A DNA stretch of 64,000 bases from a virus (lineage: Duplodnaviria > Heunggongvirae > Uroviricota > Caudoviricetes), in IMG/VR virus record IMGVR_UViG_2861079508_000001, one strand, 5' to 3'. A program made the position numbers and the translations under genes. Of this stretch, positions 3,101 to 40,968 are shown one piece after another (position 1 is the stretch's first letter; each line of letters opens with the position of its first letter). The notes under the pieces are model-generated. The model saw only the letters and a list, made by a program, of their open reading frames with translations, did not search any database and had not been told where the DNA came from.

Positions 3101-4842
3101 CAGACACCGTTCAAAACAGGCGTTTCCGCTGACGACAGAGCTTTTGAAAACGTAACCTTTGTTATGTTTTCGCCAGTTTCAAGAACATCGCGCTCAACGA
3201 TTTTGCCTTCCTGATTCAATATCCGAATAAAGCTGCCGCTTTTAGCTAACGACACAGGCGCATCGAGAGTGATGCTGTTTTTGGTAAACTCCACAATTCG
3301 ACCGGAGTTACGTTTACCTGCACGATATTTGTTCTGAATCAGAACGGTTTCACCGGGCATCAGAAATGAGGCGTCTAAGCCGGCAGTAAATGTAATTACA
3401 TCCGACTCCATTCTGGCGGTATACAAAAGCCACAAACCAACTCGGTGAGCCTGGCCTCGGCTTGTACATCCAAATGCTACGACTTCTGTTTTACGCTCAC
3501 CATAACGGCGCATTGCGTCCTGATCTTCAACGTACTCGATGTTTTGCTTATAACCGTCCTCCTTGTTGTTGTAGGTTACGAGCGCAACGGATGGGCGATC
3601 TTTACGCGCAGAACCTTTATAGGTAAACAGTCCATCTTTGACGTTGGAGTTGGTAAACATCATTACTGGATCTGATGGGCTATCCTGCATGATGTTAACC
3701 ATGCCACCAGCCCAAAACACCATGCCGCGGAATGCACCGGCAATATCCTGAATTAATCGGTATGCGTCTTGTCGACTGGTGATCTGCGTATTGATTGCAA
3801 AGCGTTTCTCTTTACCCCCAAAGCCATCATCGACCTCTTCGTCACAATATCGACCAATCTGGTAGAGCTGGCCGAGGTCAATCATGGATTCCGACACAAA
3901 TTGCCCAAGACCATACCGAGTATTGGTAAGCAAATCGTAGAGAATCCACGCAGGGTTTGAAGAAGACAACAGCTTAAAAGTACCGTCCCATACGCCGACA
4001 TAAGTATTGGTGTATTCGTTGTCTCGGATTTTGATACCGCGCACCAAATACGAACGGGAAGGCATTGTGCTACCAAACTGCTCTGAATTGACCTTCAAGC
4101 CAACAAGAGCAGAGTTAGGGTAGTTCATTGGCGTGTCGACAATCTCACCTATGGAATCAACCCATGTGTCGTTGTAGAGGTACTGGCTACTGTTATCATC
4201 TGTAAGACGAATCACCCTAACCTTGTATGCACGACCAGGCTTAGGTAGTTTCAGCTCATAGCTACGGTAATACACGCCGGTTTTCTTTGCCGTTAGCGTG
4301 ATATCAACGCTTTTCTCACCTTCTGCCACTACATCAGAAAATGTTGCGTCTCCGTTGGCGATCTGGAATTTGTACTTCACCGTAGTGCCATTTGTATCGC
4401 CAGAGCTTTTATCAACGCTACGTAAAGAGGGGAATTTCATGATGACACGAACGCGATCAGCTTCATCGTTATCGATTGAAACCGTAACGTCGTGTGTTTT
4501 TTTAAGCTGAATATTTACGGACTTAGGCGTTTCGACAAAATCAAAACCAGCCATTGGCGTCTGGTCTTGTGAGCCGTCACGAAAATCCCATGTAATACCG
4601 CTGAAGTTGGAAGAGCCATCTTCATTCAAGATCGGTAAATCGTCGATGAAGATCGACTTTGCGCCATTTACCAGGCCACCGATAACCCCCTCGCCAAGAA
4701 GGTCGAGGATGGCTGCCATAGCACGAGAATTGACAGTATCATCAGCTTCAACCGGGGTACGGCTGGAGCTTTTACTTTTCTTGCCACCAGCACCGGCAAT
4801 AAGAAGCGGTAATTTTTTCTTCTTGAACTGTTCCATGTCCAA
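124..4842 (-). CDS. central tail fibre / host specificity protein (lambda gpJ-like), 1572 aa, with tandem coiled-coil repeats
   Basis: Size and position at the distal end of the tail module after I/K/L/M-like genes; about 14 tandem ~25-aa repeats (DISAAI..EQEAR..ALA.QI.QLQSKV). Confidence 0.8.
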   Translation of the reverse strand: MDMEQFKKKKLPLLIAGAGGKKSKSSSRTPVEADDTVNSRAMAAILDLLGEGVIGGLVNGAKSIFIDDLPILNEDGSSNFSGITWDFRDGSQDQTPMAGFDFVETPKSVNIQLKKTHDVTVSIDNDEADRVRVIMKFPSLRSVDKSSGDTNGTTVKYKFQIANGDATFSDVVAEGEKSVDITLTAKKTGVYYRSYELKLPKPGRAYKVRVIRLTDDNSSQYLYNDTWVDSIGEIVDTPMNYPNSALVGLKVNSEQFGSTMPSRSYLVRGIKIRDNEYTNTYVGVWDGTFKLLSSSNPAWILYDLLTNTRYGLGQFVSESMIDLGQLYQIGRYCDEEVDDGFGGKEKRFAINTQITSRQDAYRLIQDIAGAFRGMVFWAGGMVNIMQDSPSDPVMMFTNSNVKDGLFTYKGSARKDRPSVALVTYNNKEDGYKQNIEYVEDQDAMRRYGERKTEVVAFGCTSRGQAHRVGLWLLYTARMESDVITFTAGLDASFLMPGETVLIQNKYRAGKRNSGRIVEFTKNSITLDAPVSLAKSGSFIRILNQEGKIVERDVLETGENITKVTFSKALSSAETPVLNGVWTITEPDLEPMRVRIVNIAQGETSGSFDITAVENNPSKYEAIDNGATLIPQNTTVLDPTYSKPSNLQITEGTYLSSPGNLSVKLTATWEGKSPEYWISWRRSDENNVSNWQSARVTEEQYEIVNVAENGRYDFQLYAVSFNGKKTEIISTVYQVLGTMTPPDAPTSLTAVGDYRNVILNWVNPDSVDLDHINVYASQTNNLDTAKLIAESASTTFTHAGLGDSETWYYWVRASNKRGMLSPPNSNLGTEATTRDVLSFLAGKITSSELGQALLEDINSKASQEAVDELNEHINQSVESLEGSVNDVKEDIAELDKQFSDNLAGFEIKFNERSDALENAQTELKGEVSATIDKVNEAFEKIDATDAAIVEIENTVSEHDKALANTVEAIKAARDEAAALIAKESEARVEGDAANAKQLEVLQSTVEESSAAVEEMKKTVAEVDRASAELTTNIEALAKTNIDLALRQDEDQHKQMVNNAKIATTQKTFADDMSAMATKVEEIRVEIGEDIKASILEESTARADGDEALAKRVTQLQSKFEGDISAAISTEQEARTSADEALTTQITQLESKVSNDIVAAIKEEQEARATEDSALASQITQLQAKVDDDISAAIRSEQEARASGDSALAKQINQLQSKVDGDISAAITQEQEARASADQALSREINSLRAQTGTDIAAAVAVETKARTDADSALSTQISSLTAKANDLEASLARETTARADGDTALTKEVSSLKAQTAKDISAAVAVETQARTDADSALSSQITKLTSQYKEDIKAAVATETKTRTEQDAALATQITNLESQTAANISAAVTTETTARTQADNALSGRIDTLKAEVDGNTATIQQQATAIADTNKKVSTAWTLKMETSTSGGQKYVAGIALGIDTTGLSQFLVQADRFGLVNSVNGKITTPFVIENSIAYMNGAYIKDGTITNAKVGDLQSTNFVSGRSGWRFGKNGTLEINGNSGGNGRLVINGQRIDVYDDNNVLRVRIGLL
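590..1700. repeat. tandem ~75-bp in-frame repeats inside the tail fibre gene
   Basis: Periodic nucleotide and amino-acid repeat visible in the ORF translation and the DNA. Confidence 0.7.
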
Positions 4843-11119: not shown

Positions 11120-11173
11120 TGAACCGCCCCGGGAATCCTGGAGACTAAACTCCCTGAGAAAGAGGTAAACAGG

Positions 11174-11500
11174 ATGACTAAAAATACTCGTTTTTCCCCC
11201 GAAGTCCGTCAGAGGGCGATTCGTATGGTTCTGGAAAGTCAGGGCGAATATGACTCACAGTGGGCGGCAATTTGTTCCATTGCCCCAAAGATTGGCTGTA
11301 CACCGGAGACTCTGCGTGTCTGGGTACGCCAGCATGAGCGGGATACCGGAGGCGGTGATGGCGGGCTCACCACCGCTGAACGTCAGCGTCTGAAAGAGCT
11401 GGAACGTGAAAATCGTGAACTGCGCCGCAGTAACGATATCCTTCGCCAGGCTTCCGCTTATTTTGCGAAGGCGGAGTTCGACCGCCTCTGGAAAAAATGA
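11174..11500 (+). CDS. IS3-family transposase OrfA (HTH)
   Basis: 108 aa protein [26 protein letters not shown]... recognised as IS629-type OrfA. Confidence 0.9.
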
Positions 11501-12387
11501 TGCCACTGCTGGATAAGCTGCGTGAGCAGTACGGGGTCGGACCGCTATGCAGCGAACTGCATATTGCCCCGTCAACGTATTACCACTGTCAGCAACAGCG
11601 ACATCATCCGGATAAACGCAGTGCCCGTGCGCAGCGCGATGACTGGCTGAAGAAAGAGATACAGCGCGTATACGATGAAAATCATCAGGTGTACGGTGTG
11701 CGTAAAGTCTGGCGTCAGTTGTTACGGGAAGGTATCAGAGTGGCCAGATGCACTGTGGCACGTCTCATGGCGGTTATGGGACTTGCCGGTGTTCTCCGGG
11801 GTAAAAAGGTCCGTACGACCATCAGCCGGAAAGCCGTTGCCGCAGGCGACCGCGTAAACCGTCAGTTCGTGGCAGAACGACCTGACCAGCTGTGGGTGGC
11901 TGATTTTACTTACGTCAGCACATGGCGGGGCTTCGTCTATGTGGCGTTCATCATTGATGTGTTTGCCGGATACATCGTGGGGTGGCGGGTCTCATCGTCT
12001 ATGGAAACGACATTCGTGCTGGATGCTCTGGAGCAGGCGTTATGGGCCCGTCAACCGTCCGGCACAGTCCATCACAGTGATAAAGGTTCTCAGTATGTAT
12101 CGCTGGCCTACACACAGCGGCTTAAGGAAGCCGGATTACTGGCATCAACAGGAAGTACTGGTGACTCGTATGACAACGCGATGGCGGAGAGCATCAATGG
12201 CCTTTACAAAGCGGAGGTAATACACCGTAAGAGCTGGAAAAACCGGACAGAAGTGGAGCTGGCCACACTCACGTGGGTGGACTGGTATAACAATCGACGA
12301 TTGCTGGAAAGGCTGGGCCATATCCCACCGGCAGAAGCAGAAAAAGCTTATTATGCTTCCATCGGAAACGATGATCTGGCAGCCTGA
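11497..12387 (+). CDS. IS3-family transposase OrfB (DDE integrase domain)
   Basis: 296 aa, DDE-type catalytic domain, overlaps orfA stop. Confidence 0.9.
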
Positions 12388-12429
12388 GTTCACAGATAAA
12401 ACACTCTCCAGGAAACCCGGGGCGGTTCA

Positions 12430-14786: not shown

Positions 14787-14808
14787 CTAATAGTAAGTAT
14801 ATACTTAC
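14787..14808. promoter_or_regulatory. palindromic motif TAAGTA-N-TACTTA upstream of major tail gene
   Basis: One of about 14 copies of this palindrome found just upstream of minus-strand gene starts. Confidence 0.4.
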
Positions 14809-26385: not shown

Positions 26386-27083
26386 TACATACGCTCCTTG
26401 TAGTAGTCGACCAGCCACACCAGAGCCTCACCAGCGTTCTCCATTTCATTACCGGTGTTAATAGCCTGCTCTTTGATGATGTTTTTTATGGTTTCTGCAA
26501 CACGATCTGACGCATCGAAAGTTACTTTGAAGCGCATGGTCTGATGTTCCGCACCCACACGTTCGGTTTTCTCTCGTTTGTCGGTATCGACAGGCTCATC
26601 ACTACCACGAGACAACGCCTCCAGTGCTTCAAGGTCGATTGCCGCCTCTTTTGCTAAAACCATCGAGATTTCGTCGTCATACGGGGCGATTTCAGACAGT
26701 TGATAGTCAAGTTCTGACTGAATTTCTTCAATGAAGCGTTGCAATGCGATTTGGTCGTCTTCACCGTATCGCTCGTTGTCCACCAGTGACATCTGTTTAG
26801 CTACGACATCGCTAATTTTGCCCACAGAAAGCACCGGAACCGTTGAAATTCCTTGCTCAATAGCAGCACGCCAGCGATGTTCGCCGCCGAGGATTTCAAA
26901 AAATCCATCTTCAAGTTCACGAGCCAAAATTGGCTTAAAAAAGCCCAATTTTTCGATAGAACCTTTCAGTTTTTCAAAATTCTGCGCACCAACCGAATTG
27001 GTGTTCCAGGTATTCGGGCGAAGGTTGGCAACATCAACCTGCAAAATCGTGATTTTTACATCCATTTTATTGCTACAATACAC
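26385..27083 (-). CDS. ParB-like N-terminal domain protein 2
   Basis: ParB/Srx motif LGGEHRWRAA. Confidence 0.6.
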   Translation of the reverse strand: MYCSNKMDVKITILQVDVANLRPNTWNTNSVGAQNFEKLKGSIEKLGFFKPILARELEDGFFEILGGEHRWRAAIEQGISTVPVLSVGKISDVVAKQMSLVDNERYGEDDQIALQRFIEEIQSELDYQLSEIAPYDDEISMVLAKEAAIDLEALEALSRGSDEPVDTDKREKTERVGAEHQTMRFKVTFDASDRVAETIKNIIKEQAINTGNEMENAGEALVWLVDYYKERM

Positions 27084-33208: not shown

Positions 33209-33625
33209 TTACCACCAGGCGCAGAAGGTCAGTCTGTTATTGTGAAAGTCGTGGTTCTTAATCAGATCTTCCACAAGCTCTTTCAACTGCCCCACATCAT
33301 GCCAGTAACCTTCGTCGTACTCCTGACTGCCGAAGAAAAAACCTTCCCGAGTAGGCAAGTACTCTTCGCAATTGCTTTCGTTTATGTGCATCAAATGAGC
33401 TTTCAGAAGACAAATGTCATTCATCGTTAATTCTAAAAGCTCACAATTTTCGACTTCACCTACGTTGCGCTCCATCCACCCAACGAGCGCATTGAACTTA
33501 CGGAAGTAAGCAACCTGCTTTCTGGATGCCTCGTTATTCAGATCGTTTTTAGGCTGTGTCTCGATATAGATATCAAGTCCCATGATGGTTTCCTTATTAA
33601 CTTGCTTCAGTAAAATCATTTTCAC
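33209..33625 (-). CDS. hypothetical protein
   Basis: 138 aa ORF; likely true start a few codons inside. Confidence 0.45.
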   Translation of the reverse strand: MKMILLKQVNKETIMGLDIYIETQPKNDLNNEASRKQVAYFRKFNALVGWMERNVGEVENCELLELTMNDICLLKAHLMHINESNCEEYLPTREGFFFGSQEYDEGYWHDVGQLKELVEDLIKNHDFHNNRLTFCAWW

Positions 33626-33666: not shown

Positions 33667-33692
33667 AAAATGGCGCGGTTTACGCGCCATTT
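33667..33692. terminator. intrinsic terminator hairpin (AATGGCGCG-GTTTA-CGCGCCATT)
   Basis: Hairpin flanked by A/T runs, immediately after a TAA at about 33701. Confidence 0.5.
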
Positions 33693-33856
33693 AAAGAGGA
33701 TTAAGCGAATACGCTTTCAGGGATTAAGGTGTCGGCAGGAATGCCAGAGGTAATGCGCAGGCCGTACTGACCAATCCAGGTAGTGTTGGTATTCAGGCTG
33801 GAGGCGAATACGGTGTTAACCATATTCATCATGGTTTCAAACACCTCTTCATCAAC

Positions 33857-34096
33857 CTAGCGGAAGTAGTTCTCGATTTTCAGCAGCAGCGGGTCAGTTG
33901 CATCGAGAATGGACTGGTATTGAGTCGCGTACTCGCCGCCGGAGGCATCACCTTTACGCACGATCGTACTGGCCTGGACTTCGGCACCAGTTTCGGTGTT
34001 GTACGTAACAACGGTAATTTTTGCCACATTCTTACCTTCGGCGGTTTCAGAGGCATAGTAAACATCAACTGTCAGTTTTTCGCGTTTAACGGTCAT
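33857..34096 (-). CDS. hypothetical protein, apparently truncated (79 aa) by a premature TAG
   Basis: ORF ends at TAG; protein-like reading frame continues about 49 codons to a TAA at about 33701 followed by a terminator. Confidence 0.45.
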   Translation of the reverse strand: MTVKREKLTVDVYYASETAEGKNVAKITVVTYNTETGAEVQASTIVRKGDASGGEYATQYQSILDATDPLLLKIENYFR

Positions 34097-34221
34097 TTCA
34101 CTCTCCGTAGTGTATTGGTTATTTTTATATTCTATAATCGTAAGTATTTACTTACAATACAAAAAGCCCCGTAAGGATGGCGGGGCTGTCGTACTGTCGA
34201 CTAATTGCCACTTGCACATTA

Positions 34222-34533
34222 TCAGGCTATTGCCATCACTGATGCTCTCTGAATTTCTTGCTGGGCCACGCGGTTAACTTCCATCAAGGCCAGTTCGAGC
34301 TGATGTTCCGGCCACATTCTTTGAAACGCCATCCAGCCTTTTCCACGCTGGCGACGAACATTCATTACATAACGAGTAAAGGTGTTTTTATCGAAAGACA
34401 CCGCTGTTTCACGGAACAGACGAATAGAGGTTCCATTGGCAACGATGTCCAGCAAAGTTAATTGAGCAACCAGCGCAGGCTTCTCTTTTCTCTTCTGGTC
34501 TTTGTCCAGACCAAGAACCAATGATTTTTTCAT
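34222..34533 (-). CDS. hypothetical protein
   Basis: Start at MKKSLVLG with RBS GGAG; motif AAACAACTTGTTTTCT immediately upstream. Confidence 0.5.
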   Translation of the reverse strand: MKKSLVLGLDKDQKRKEKPALVAQLTLLDIVANGTSIRLFRETAVSFDKNTFTRYVMNVRRQRGKGWMAFQRMWPEHQLELALMEVNRVAQQEIQRASVMAIA

Positions 34534-34544
34534 CACAACTCCGT

Positions 34545-34560
34545 AAACAACTTGTTTTCT
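34545..34560. promoter_or_regulatory. palindromic motif AAACAACTTGTTTTCT
   Basis: between -10-like TATTAT and RBS of downstream gene. Confidence 0.45.
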
Positions 34561-34687
34561 CAATGGCGTAAATAATACCAATAAGAAAACGGCTACAAAG
34601 CATAATGATCAGGTGCATGAGCGATATGCAGGTTCTTCCCTGCGGCTACAGATTAAGTTAAGCCAGCAATGCTGGCTTTGGTTGGGA

Positions 34688-37676: not shown

Positions 37677-39710
37677 TTACTTAACCTGGTGGCCAGGTTT
37701 AGCACCAGCATCCGGGCTTAACAGGAAGATATCTTTCCCGCCGGGGCCAGCAGCCATCACCATGCCTTCAGAGATACCGAAGCGCATTTTACGTGGTGCC
37801 AGGTTAGCCACCATAATGGTGTGACGACCAATCAGTGCCTGTGGATCTGGATAAGCGGAACGGATGCCTGAGAAGACATTACGCTTTTCACCACCGAGAT
37901 CCAGCGTCAGGCGAAGCAGTTTGTCAGAACCTTCTACAAACTCTGCGTTTTCAATCAGCGCCACGCGCAGGTCAACTTTGGCGAAGTCGTCAAAGGTGAT
38001 AGTTTCCTGAATCGGGTCGTCAGCCAGTGGGCCAGTTACCGGTGCGGCTGTGGCTTTCACTTCTTCTTTGGATGCTTCCACCAGTGCTTCAACCTGCTTC
38101 ATATCGATGCGGTTATACAGTGCCTTGAACGGATTCACTTTATGGCCCAGCAGCGGTTGCTGGATACCATCCCAGGTCAGTTCTGTATTCAGGAATGCTT
38201 CTGCACGTTCAGTCAGTTTCGGCAGTACCGGTTTCAGGTACGTCATCAGCACGCGGAACAGGTTAATGCCCATAGAGCAAATCGCCTGCAGATCGGCATC
38301 GCGTCCTTCCTGCTTTGCCACCACCCACGGAGCCTGTTCATCAACATAGCGGTTAGCCAGGTCAGCCAGTGCCATGATTTCACGGATAGCTTTGCCAAAT
38401 TCGCGGCTTTCCCATGCTTCGCCAATCACTTCAGCGGCATCAGTAAAGGTTTTGTACAGTTGCGGGTCAGCCAGTTCGCTTGCCAGCACGCCGTCAAAAC
38501 GCTTGTTGATAAAGCCTGCATTACGGGAGGCCAGGTTAACCACTTTGTTAACGATATCGGCATTCACACGCTGAACGAAATCTTCCAGGTTGAGATCGAT
38601 ATCATCAATGCGCGAAGAGAGTTTCGCAGTGTAGTAGTAACGCAGGCTGTCGGCGTCAAAATGATTCAGCCAGGTGCTGGCTTTAATAAAGGTGCCGCGA
38701 GACTTGGACATCTTCGCGCCGTTCACCGTCACATAGCCGTGAACAAACAGGTTGGTCGGCTTGCGGAAGTTGCTGCCTTCCAGCATGGCAGGCCAGAACA
38801 GGCTGTGGAAGTAAACGATATCTTTGCCGATGAAGTGGTACAGCTCGGCGGTGGAGTCTTTCTTCCAGTATTCGTCGAAGCTGGTAGTGTCGCCGCGTTT
38901 GTCGCACAGATTCTTGAAGGAACCCATGTAGCCAATCGGCGCGTCCAGCCAGACGTAGAAGTATTTGCCCGGTGCGTTCGGAATTTCAAAACCGAAGTAA
39001 GGTGCGTCACGGGAGATATCCCACTGTTGCAGGCCAGATTCAAACCACTCCTGCATTTTGTTTGCCACCTGCTCCTGCAACGCACCGCTGCGGGTCCATG
39101 CCTGCAACATTTCGCTGAAAGAAGGCAGATCAAAGAAGAAGTGTTCGGAATCACGCATTACCGGTGTAGCGCCAGAAACCACTGATTTCGGCTCGATCAG
39201 TTCCGTCGGGCTGTATGTCGCGCCGCAGACTTCACAGTTATCGCCGTATTGATCCGGCGCTTTACATTTCGGGCATGTGCCTTTTACAAAACGGTCCGGC
39301 AGGAACATGCCTTTTTCCGGGTCGTACAGCTGAGAGATGGTGCGGTTTTTAATAAAACCGTTCTCTTTCAGGCGAGTATAGATAAGCTCGGACAACTGAC
39401 GGTTCTCTTCGCTGTGCGTCGAGTGATAGTTGTCATAGCTGATGTTAAAGCCTGCGAAATCAGTCTGATGTTCCTGACTCATTTCGCCAATCATCTGTTC
39501 CGGTGTGATACCAAGCTGCTGTGCTTTCAGCATGATTGGCGTACCGTGGGCATCGTCGGCACAGATGAAATTAACCTCGTGGCCGCGCATTCGCTGGTAA
39601 CGAACCCAGACATCAGCCTGGATGTGCTCCAGCATATGGCCGAGGTGGATTGAGCCGTTAGCGTACGGCAGCGCGCACGTCACCAGAATTTTCTTCGCGA
39701 CTTGGGTCAT
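37677..39710 (-). CDS. metG: methionine--tRNA ligase (enterobacterial host-type)
   Basis: 677 aa from [25 protein letters not shown] (HIGH motif), KMSKS motif, C-terminal tRNA-binding domain; near-identical to Escherichia MetG by recall. Confidence 0.95.
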
Positions 39711-39867
39711 AGTAGGCATTACTTCTTTGTAGTGAAAAGGGGCTTGATAGTAACAAAATGGCCTTATGTCTGCCATGTGATAACAGCATTTCTCATAAAT
39801 GATTAAATGTCGTAGCTGGAGTACACTACAAGGCGACAATTGCGCAAATTAAAATAAAGGAGACGGG

Positions 39868-40968
39868 ATGAGCGAGTCCAAATCGCCGGATGCCCTGAGA
39901 GCAATGGTAGCCGGTACGCTGGCTAATTTTCAGCACCCAACCCTGAAACACAACCTGACTACGCTTAAAGCGTTACACCATGTTGCGTTGATGGATGACA
40001 CACTGCATGTCGAACTAATCATGCCTTTCGTGTGGAATAAGCCTTTTGAAGACCTGAAAGAGCAATGTAGTGGTGATCTGCTCCGTATCACTGGCGCAAA
40101 GGCTATTGACTGGAAGCTGTCGTACAACATTGCCACGCTTAAGCGCGTCAAAAACCAACCAGGCATTAATGGCGTTAAGAACATTATCGCCGTCAGCTCA
40201 GGCAAGGGCGGCGTGGGTAAATCCTCCACGGCGGTAAACCTGGCACTGGCGTTGGCTGCTGAAGGTGCGAAAGTTGGTATTTTGGATGCCGATATCTATG
40301 GTCCATCAATTCCAACCATGCTGGGCGCGGAAAACCAACGTCCAACCTCACCGGACGGTACTCACATGGCACCTATCATGTCTCATGGCCTGGCAACCAA
40401 CTCTATTGGTTATCTGGTCACCGACGACAATGCAATGGTGTGGCGTGGACCGATGGCCAGCAAGGCGCTGATGCAGATGTTGCAGGAAACACTGTGGCCT
40501 GATCTGGACTATCTCGTTCTCGATATGCCACCGGGCACTGGTGATATTCAATTGACGCTGGCGCAGAACATTCCTGTAACTGGTGCGGTTGTGGTAACTA
40601 CGCCGCAAGACATCGCGCTGATCGATGCGAAGAAAGGCATTGTGATGTTCGAAAAAGTCGAAGTGCCGGTACTGGGTATCGTTGAAAACATGAGTGTGCA
40701 TATTTGCAGTAACTGCGGTCATCACGAGCCAATTTTTGGCACCGGTGGCGCACAGAAACTGGCCGAGAAATACAACACGCAGTTGTTAGGCCAAATGCCA
40801 CTTCATATCTCTCTTCGTGAAGATCTGGATAACGGAACACCAACCGTTATTAGTCGTCCAGATAGTGAATTTACGGCTATTTATCGTGACCTCGCAGATC
40901 GCGTTGCTGCCCAAATGTATTGGCAAGGTGAAGTAATACCTGGCGAAATCGCATTCCGCGCAGTGTGA
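39868..40968 (+). CDS. apbC: Fe-S cluster carrier ATPase ApbC/Mrp
   Basis: Walker [11 protein letters not shown] and CxxC motif CSNCGH; divergent from metG as in enterobacterial chromosomes. Confidence 0.95.

Follow-up and report, generated by a model that had tools for sequence, protein, structure and literature searches.

On the minus strand of the window, that is, the whole stretch of 64,000 nucleotides that was analysed, we found an ORF of 79 codons that ends at a TAG and is followed in the same frame, from a GTT at 33856 onwards, by a second open stretch that runs to a TAA (table 1). The predicted translation of the ORF is a truncated protein of 79 amino acids. A sequence-only reading of the region had already placed the end of this ORF at the TAG and had described, beyond it, a protein-like frame of about 49 codons reaching a TAA near 33701, with a terminator hairpin immediately after it. 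The frame, its end at the TAA and the hairpin were all found as described, but the continuation has 51 codons rather than 49. The hairpin (33692-33668) starts 11 nt past the TAA and has a G+C-rich stem of 10 bp, AAAUGGCGCG/CGCGCCAUUU, whose folding energy lies well below that of shuffled sequences, the comparison from which the z-scores in table 1 are taken.

Upstream of the ORF there is a promoter-like site that is kept in the orthologues and would work as the promoter of this gene. Its two hexamers flank a perfect palindrome, a candidate operator, that is also kept in the orthologous promoters. The gene that lies upstream has a terminator of its own, and a separate transcription unit therefore begins at the interrupted gene. 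With a putative promoter, a candidate operator and a predicted terminator, the gene with the TAG (hereafter the amber gene) is, from its layout, a self-contained transcription unit.

Table 1. Features of the amber gene and of the tape-measure insertion in the window
Feature	Position	Strand	Basis or remark
79-codon ORF with premature TAG	33857..34096 (ATG at 34096; ORF 34096..33860; TAG 33859..33857)	-	sequence, translation
Cut-off part of the ancestral gene, 51 codons and TAA (33703..33701)	33701..33856	-	translation, orthologue comparison
Mutated Dcm site, CTAGG in the window versus CCAGG in close relatives	33856..33860	-	alignment
Terminator hairpin, end of the original gene	33668..33692	-	folding, -19 kcal/mol, z = -5.53
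Shine-Dalgarno-like GGAGAG 5' of the ATG	34101..34106	-	sequence
Sigma-70-like promoter of the interrupted gene, TTGTAA-17 nt-TAGAAT	34129..34157	-	9/12 consensus matches
Perfect 16-bp palindrome GTAAGTA-NN-TACTTAC, candidate operator	34140..34155		between the -35 and -10 hexamers
Terminator of the gene upstream (stem at 34187-34165, T-run at 34164-34160)	34160..34187	-	-19.6 kcal/mol, z = -4.65
IS3-family insertion sequence, 1310 bp	11120-12429		splits the tape-measure gene; absent from pSJC33-2

Taken by itself, an open frame of 51 codons is weak evidence of coding (it would arise by chance with a probability of about 0.09). The stretch past the TAG is identified as coding because the orthologues run through it. 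In Cyrano/pLF82, PhiR41_1, pSJC33-2, pSTEC388_1 and pTW10722_119 the intact orthologue is annotated as a single CDS of 396 nt and 131 aa, and two CMS-2020a records without annotation share this open frame. When the window was aligned, without any gap, to seven reference elements, codon 80 was found to be TAG in the window, CAG in the close relatives and, in a distant clade, AAG. Inside the gene, the only difference between the window and pSJC33-2 is at position 33859, where the plus strand has an A in the window and a G in pSJC33-2 (T and C, respectively, on the coding strand). Because both the close and the distant clade have sense codons here, and because pSJC33-2 differs in the gene at this single base, the TAG allele is, according to the alignment, the derived state, produced by one C-to-T transition that changed Gln80 into an amber codon.

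The same conclusion about the gene end is reached from more distant comparisons. Between the two clades, codons 84-131 show eight synonymous and no nonsynonymous differences. Full-length homologues have 131 aa in nearby elements and 127-156 aa in an exhaustive search; all of them align to the C-terminus and every one runs through to ...PESVF(A/E). Codon 80 is an ordinary and variable sense position across the homologues (Q/K/S/T), with no stop at this codon in any orthologue or distant homologue examined, and none of the orthologues examined is naturally split. The sequence-only reading had left the choice between a frameshift, a recoding site and a nonsense lesion by which the gene had lost its original end at the TAA, and had admitted a doubt of one nucleotide in its reading of the bases. 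No orthologue examined ends at the TAG, and the nonsense lesion is the alternative that stands. The frameshift is excluded by the translation and by the gap-free alignment, and the doubt about one nucleotide is thereby settled in favour of a pure in-frame nonsense codon.

Matches to a segment of 651 bp around the gene were found in four phage records and in over 200 plasmids of E. coli and Shigella, of about 95-120 kb. With Escherichia phage Cyrano (= pLF82), described as an SSU5-like phage-plasmid (PMC9928086), the gene region shares 98% identity. Over about 48 kb the window is 99.9% identical to pSJC33-2, a plasmid of E. coli from chicken faeces, and this stretch includes genes for terminase, portal, capsid, tail and tape measure, ParB-like genes and a helicase gene. 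By gene content and identity, the window is an SSU5/pLF82-like phage-plasmid of E. coli. Full-length metG (methionyl-tRNA synthetase) and apbC/mrp genes are also found in the window at about 37680-40965, adjoining an IS1 remnant, in a stretch common to the close relatives; because of these housekeeping genes, the window finds a match in almost any E. coli genome.

The intact protein matches PHROG 2473, a family of unknown function, from end to end (E = 4e-56), and an exhaustive HMMER search returned only 30 representative clusters of homologues. The invariant columns of the family, which include W107, G109-Q-Y-G-L-R-I115, P126, E127, V129 and F130, cluster past the stop, in the part of the gene that encodes the W-x-G-Q-Y-G-L-R-I ... 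P-E-S-V-F motifs. An AlphaFold model built from six homologues (mean pLDDT 79, pTM 0.74) predicts four antiparallel strands (residues 8-63), a helix at 69-79, a second helix at 83-100 and a fifth strand at 113-120; the amber codon takes away the predicted helix 83-100 and strand 113-120. Judging from the conserved residues and predicted elements that are lost, the TAG allele is most likely a loss-of-function allele. Nevertheless, the N-terminal unit of four strands could keep some activity, and the presence of the allele on at least four flanking haplotypes (see below) points to persistence or recurrence, which is less expected of a purely deleterious mutation.

Searches in Pfam, NCBIfam and PADLOC returned only sub-threshold matches, to CARF/Csm6-type models over residues 8-66 (E = 0.02-0.04). 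We rejected a CARF/Csm6-type identity, since the model shows an antiparallel four-strand meander in this region instead of a Rossmann-like fold, and the scores are far below the cut-offs. With Foldseek, no match at E <= 0.001 and no TM-score above 0.44 was obtained against the PDB and BFVD. Two of the database "homologues" (P0018 and P0037) showed pervasive T-to-I, A-to-V and R-to-C substitutions, a pattern expected of C-to-T converted reads, such as bisulfite-like or damaged DNA, and not of real variants.

The changed base also has a particular sequence context. The ancestral coding context is CGC-CAG-GTT, and the close relatives read GCCAGGT. If the base is restored in the window, positions 33856-33860 read CCTGG on the plus strand, which matches CCWGG. 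The Dcm methylase of E. coli recognises CCWGG and methylates its inner cytosine, and most E. coli strains are dcm+. Position 33859 is precisely the inner (second) cytosine of the CCAGG on the coding strand. Since only 206 of the 30,016 G:C pairs of the window (0.69%) are such positions, a coincidence is unlikely for a transition that falls at random. Documented amber hotspots of lacI fall on the second C of CCAGG (Coulondre et al. 1978; reviewed in PMC12606429), and 5-methylcytosine deaminates to thymine, which is not recognised as damage by uracil glycosylase (PMC12606429).

We suggest that the inner C of this CCAGG would have been methylated by Dcm in the host, and that the 5-methylcytosine at 33859 would then have deaminated spontaneously to thymine, escaping very-short-patch repair. 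The CAG of codon 80 (Gln) would so have become TAG, and translation would stop after residue 79, leaving a product without helix 2, strand 5 and the motifs that are best conserved in the family. In natural phage-plasmid populations the allele is present at low frequency, with the rest of its frame intact. The site makes deamination of 5-methylcytosine the most likely origin of the TAG, although any C-to-T replication error leaves an identical base.

An exact protein look-up located the 79-aa product on 20 contigs in one count and in 30 index blocks in a second, all of them belonging to metagenomes assembled in ENA or to read runs assembled in Logan; the longest contig has 66.6 kb. Ten loci from different samples, among these samples ERR11768779, ERR2821868 and the runs that underlie ERZ28615289 and ERZ28618143, were read, and all ten have TAG at codon 80 in an otherwise intact 131-codon frame. 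The identical intact protein of 131 aa occurs on at least 1000 contigs. Set against that number, the 20-30 contigs with the TAG product indicate that the allele is natural as well as rare, and it is real.

This look-up was the sole means by which the allele was detected elsewhere. None of 201 RefSeq complete E. coli records and 180 PLSDB plasmid records contains a perfect match to a 61-mer centred on the TAG; the allele is absent from every complete plasmid or phage among the phage, PLSDB and RefSeq complete E. coli records, and exact 33-mer scans of genome, viral and metagenome contig collections gave zero matches. Such absences, together with the fact that the window differs from the nearest complete plasmid by a single base in this gene, are what one would expect if the TAG of the window were an error of sequencing or assembly, or an amber mutant made in the laboratory. 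Both possibilities had been raised by the sequence-only reading, and both are now extremely improbable: the very same allele was recovered in independent assemblies of at least 10 different samples, made with different assemblers and present in both ENA and Logan records, and these are metagenomic samples or public read runs rather than laboratory phage stocks. We consider it very likely that the window carries a natural amber allele of a 131-codon accessory gene of PHROG 2473, which originated at a Dcm site and most likely causes loss of function.

Within 500 bp of the TAG, the contigs that carry it show at least four different flanking haplotypes. In addition to the window type (L009-L011, L013 and L016), there is one that differs from +247 on (L017/L018), one that differs from +197 on and does not have the window-specific variant at +201 (L014/L015), and one with a Cyrano-like upstream flank from -157 (L012). 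Moreover, the TAG site and +247/+258 do not pass the four-gamete test. Recombination among co-circulating phage-plasmids, recurrence at the hotspot or chimeric metagenome contigs can all produce such a mix. We found no complete plasmid with CAG that equals L012 or L014 elsewhere, the best ones reaching 99.0% and 98.7% identity, respectively. Since the rest of the frame is undecayed and the allele is common to several flanking haplotypes, it is, as far as the contigs tell, a polymorphism that is young or keeps recurring, and not a pseudogene of long standing.

The occurrence of the TAG on these haplotypes in at least 10 samples, with a failed four-gamete test, also agrees with the idea that it is kept by selection, either because the loss of the gene is advantageous and the Dcm hotspot, which makes recurrence plausible, keeps supplying it, or because the gene works as two pieces, the 79-aa product and a re-initiated 43-aa one. 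An AAGAGG lies 11 nt 5' of the ATG at 33832 (ATG codons 89/90), from which re-initiation is conceivable, and the 43-aa ORF that begins there was called by gene callers in five of the 10 TAG loci (L009-L013). In addition, the 153 nt 3' of the TAG are unchanged in 10/10 TAG contigs, but there is so little divergence among them that this carries no statistical weight. Mixed haplotypes are equally produced by recombination or by chimeric metagenome assembly, and the L012 haplotype has no near-identical counterpart with CAG. The rarity of the allele (20-30 contigs versus at least 1000, and none of the RefSeq and PLSDB records) and the unsplit state of all orthologues argue in the same direction, and we regard selection or a two-piece gene as improbable. 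A more specific proposal, that the Dcm site in codons 79-81 is a recurrent mutational off-switch, at which the amber codon has arisen more than once and is kept at low frequency by some benefit, is slightly less probable still. If it were true, losing or splitting an operator-controlled gene would benefit the plasmid or its host, for example in E. coli of the livestock gut.

Programmed read-through or recoding of the TAG, giving a short and a long product, was another option of the sequence-only reading. Its appeal comes from the intact in-frame continuation, which ends at a proper terminator, and from the fact that a supE (glnV) host inserts Gln at TAG, so that the ancestral protein would be restored exactly. 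However, supE decoding is a property of the host, and ARAGORN found no tRNA or suppressor tRNA gene in the 64-kb window. The TAG is a rare derived variant, absent from all orthologues and distant homologues examined, at a codon that varies among Q, K, S and T. The case may be compared with the A1 read-through protein of phage Q-beta, in which an in-frame stop is likewise followed by a coding-like extension ending at a terminator. In contrast, the TAG of the window is conserved in no relative, no decoding element of the suppressor-tRNA type was found, and the apparent "extension" is the conserved C-terminus of the ancestral protein. We therefore dropped programmed read-through as a very improbable explanation.

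The amber allele resembles the amber hotspots of lacI, since both involve a change from CCAGG to CTAGG at the second C of a Dcm site that turns an in-frame CAG into TAG. The two cases differ in that the lacI mutants were selected in the laboratory, whereas the present one is a natural phage-plasmid variant from metagenomes, for which methylation and deamination are deduced from the site. There is also a likeness to ordinary nonsense pseudogenes of bacteria and prophages: the in-frame stop is derived, the relatives have sense codons, conserved C-terminal residues are lost and another inactivating lesion on the same element is the insertion that splits the tape-measure gene. The allele departs from such pseudogenes in the absence of any decay in the remaining frame and in the occurrence of the allele on several flanking haplotypes. 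Overall, the TAG is an ordinary, naturally segregating amber allele at a textbook Dcm hotspot, on a phage-plasmid that is probably defective.

The allele illustrates cleanly, in nature, the CCAGG-to-CTAGG hotspot of the textbooks. For annotation, the locus should be described as one 131-codon gene, a pseudogene or nonsense allele by its amber mutation, and not as a 79-aa gene followed by one of 43 or 47 aa. The TAG allele also represents a natural knock-out of PHROG 2473 that can be compared with intact plasmids. Beyond annotation, its significance is small.

Among the 52 genes shared with pSJC33-2, only two are broken in the window, the amber gene and the tape-measure gene. The latter is split at about residue 279 of 1523 by an IS3-family element, presumably IS629/IS1203-like. 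The element has the terminal inverted repeats TGAACCGCCCCGGG, a target duplication of 3 bp (CGA) and two transposase ORFs, 11174-11500 and 11497-12387, which overlap. Because of this insertion, the copy of the phage-plasmid in the window probably cannot make normal tails. Taken together, the amber gene and the tape-measure insertion suggest that this copy is decaying towards a plain plasmid, and the remark of the sequence-only reading that the genome might be decaying fits this second lesion.

As to the function of the amber gene, the sole clue for PHROG 2473 in our data is the putatively regulatory palindrome in its promoter. Twelve copies of GTAAGTA-NN-TACTTAC were found in the window at up to two mismatches, against 0.09 expected. 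Besides the one in table 1, they lie at 14793-14808, 75, 79, 6975, 20284, 20288, 27083, 42373, 46449, 48662 and 62897. Most of them are located in short intergenic spacers just 5' of genes, and the copy at 27083 falls in the divergent ParB/helicase region. Such a distribution may indicate that the palindromes form the operator set of a global regulator. Speculatively, this regulator could be one of the two ParB-family proteins, used in a KorB-like manner.

Some other differences from pSJC33-2 were observed. Both neighbours of the amber gene (window 33209-33625 and 34222-34581) are intact, whereas of their counterparts in pSJC33-2 (L008; 33698-33997 and 34636-34945) one carries a frameshift in the annotation and the other has been made shorter by an indel. 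The indels relative to pSJC33-2 are at window positions 33336, 34346-34347 and 34585, and those in the neighbouring genes are probably assembly errors or lesions of the pSJC33-2 record, not of the window. Finally, an in-frame deletion of 12 bp (four codons) relative to pSJC33-2 was found at position 4023 of the window, in the tail tip fibre gene.
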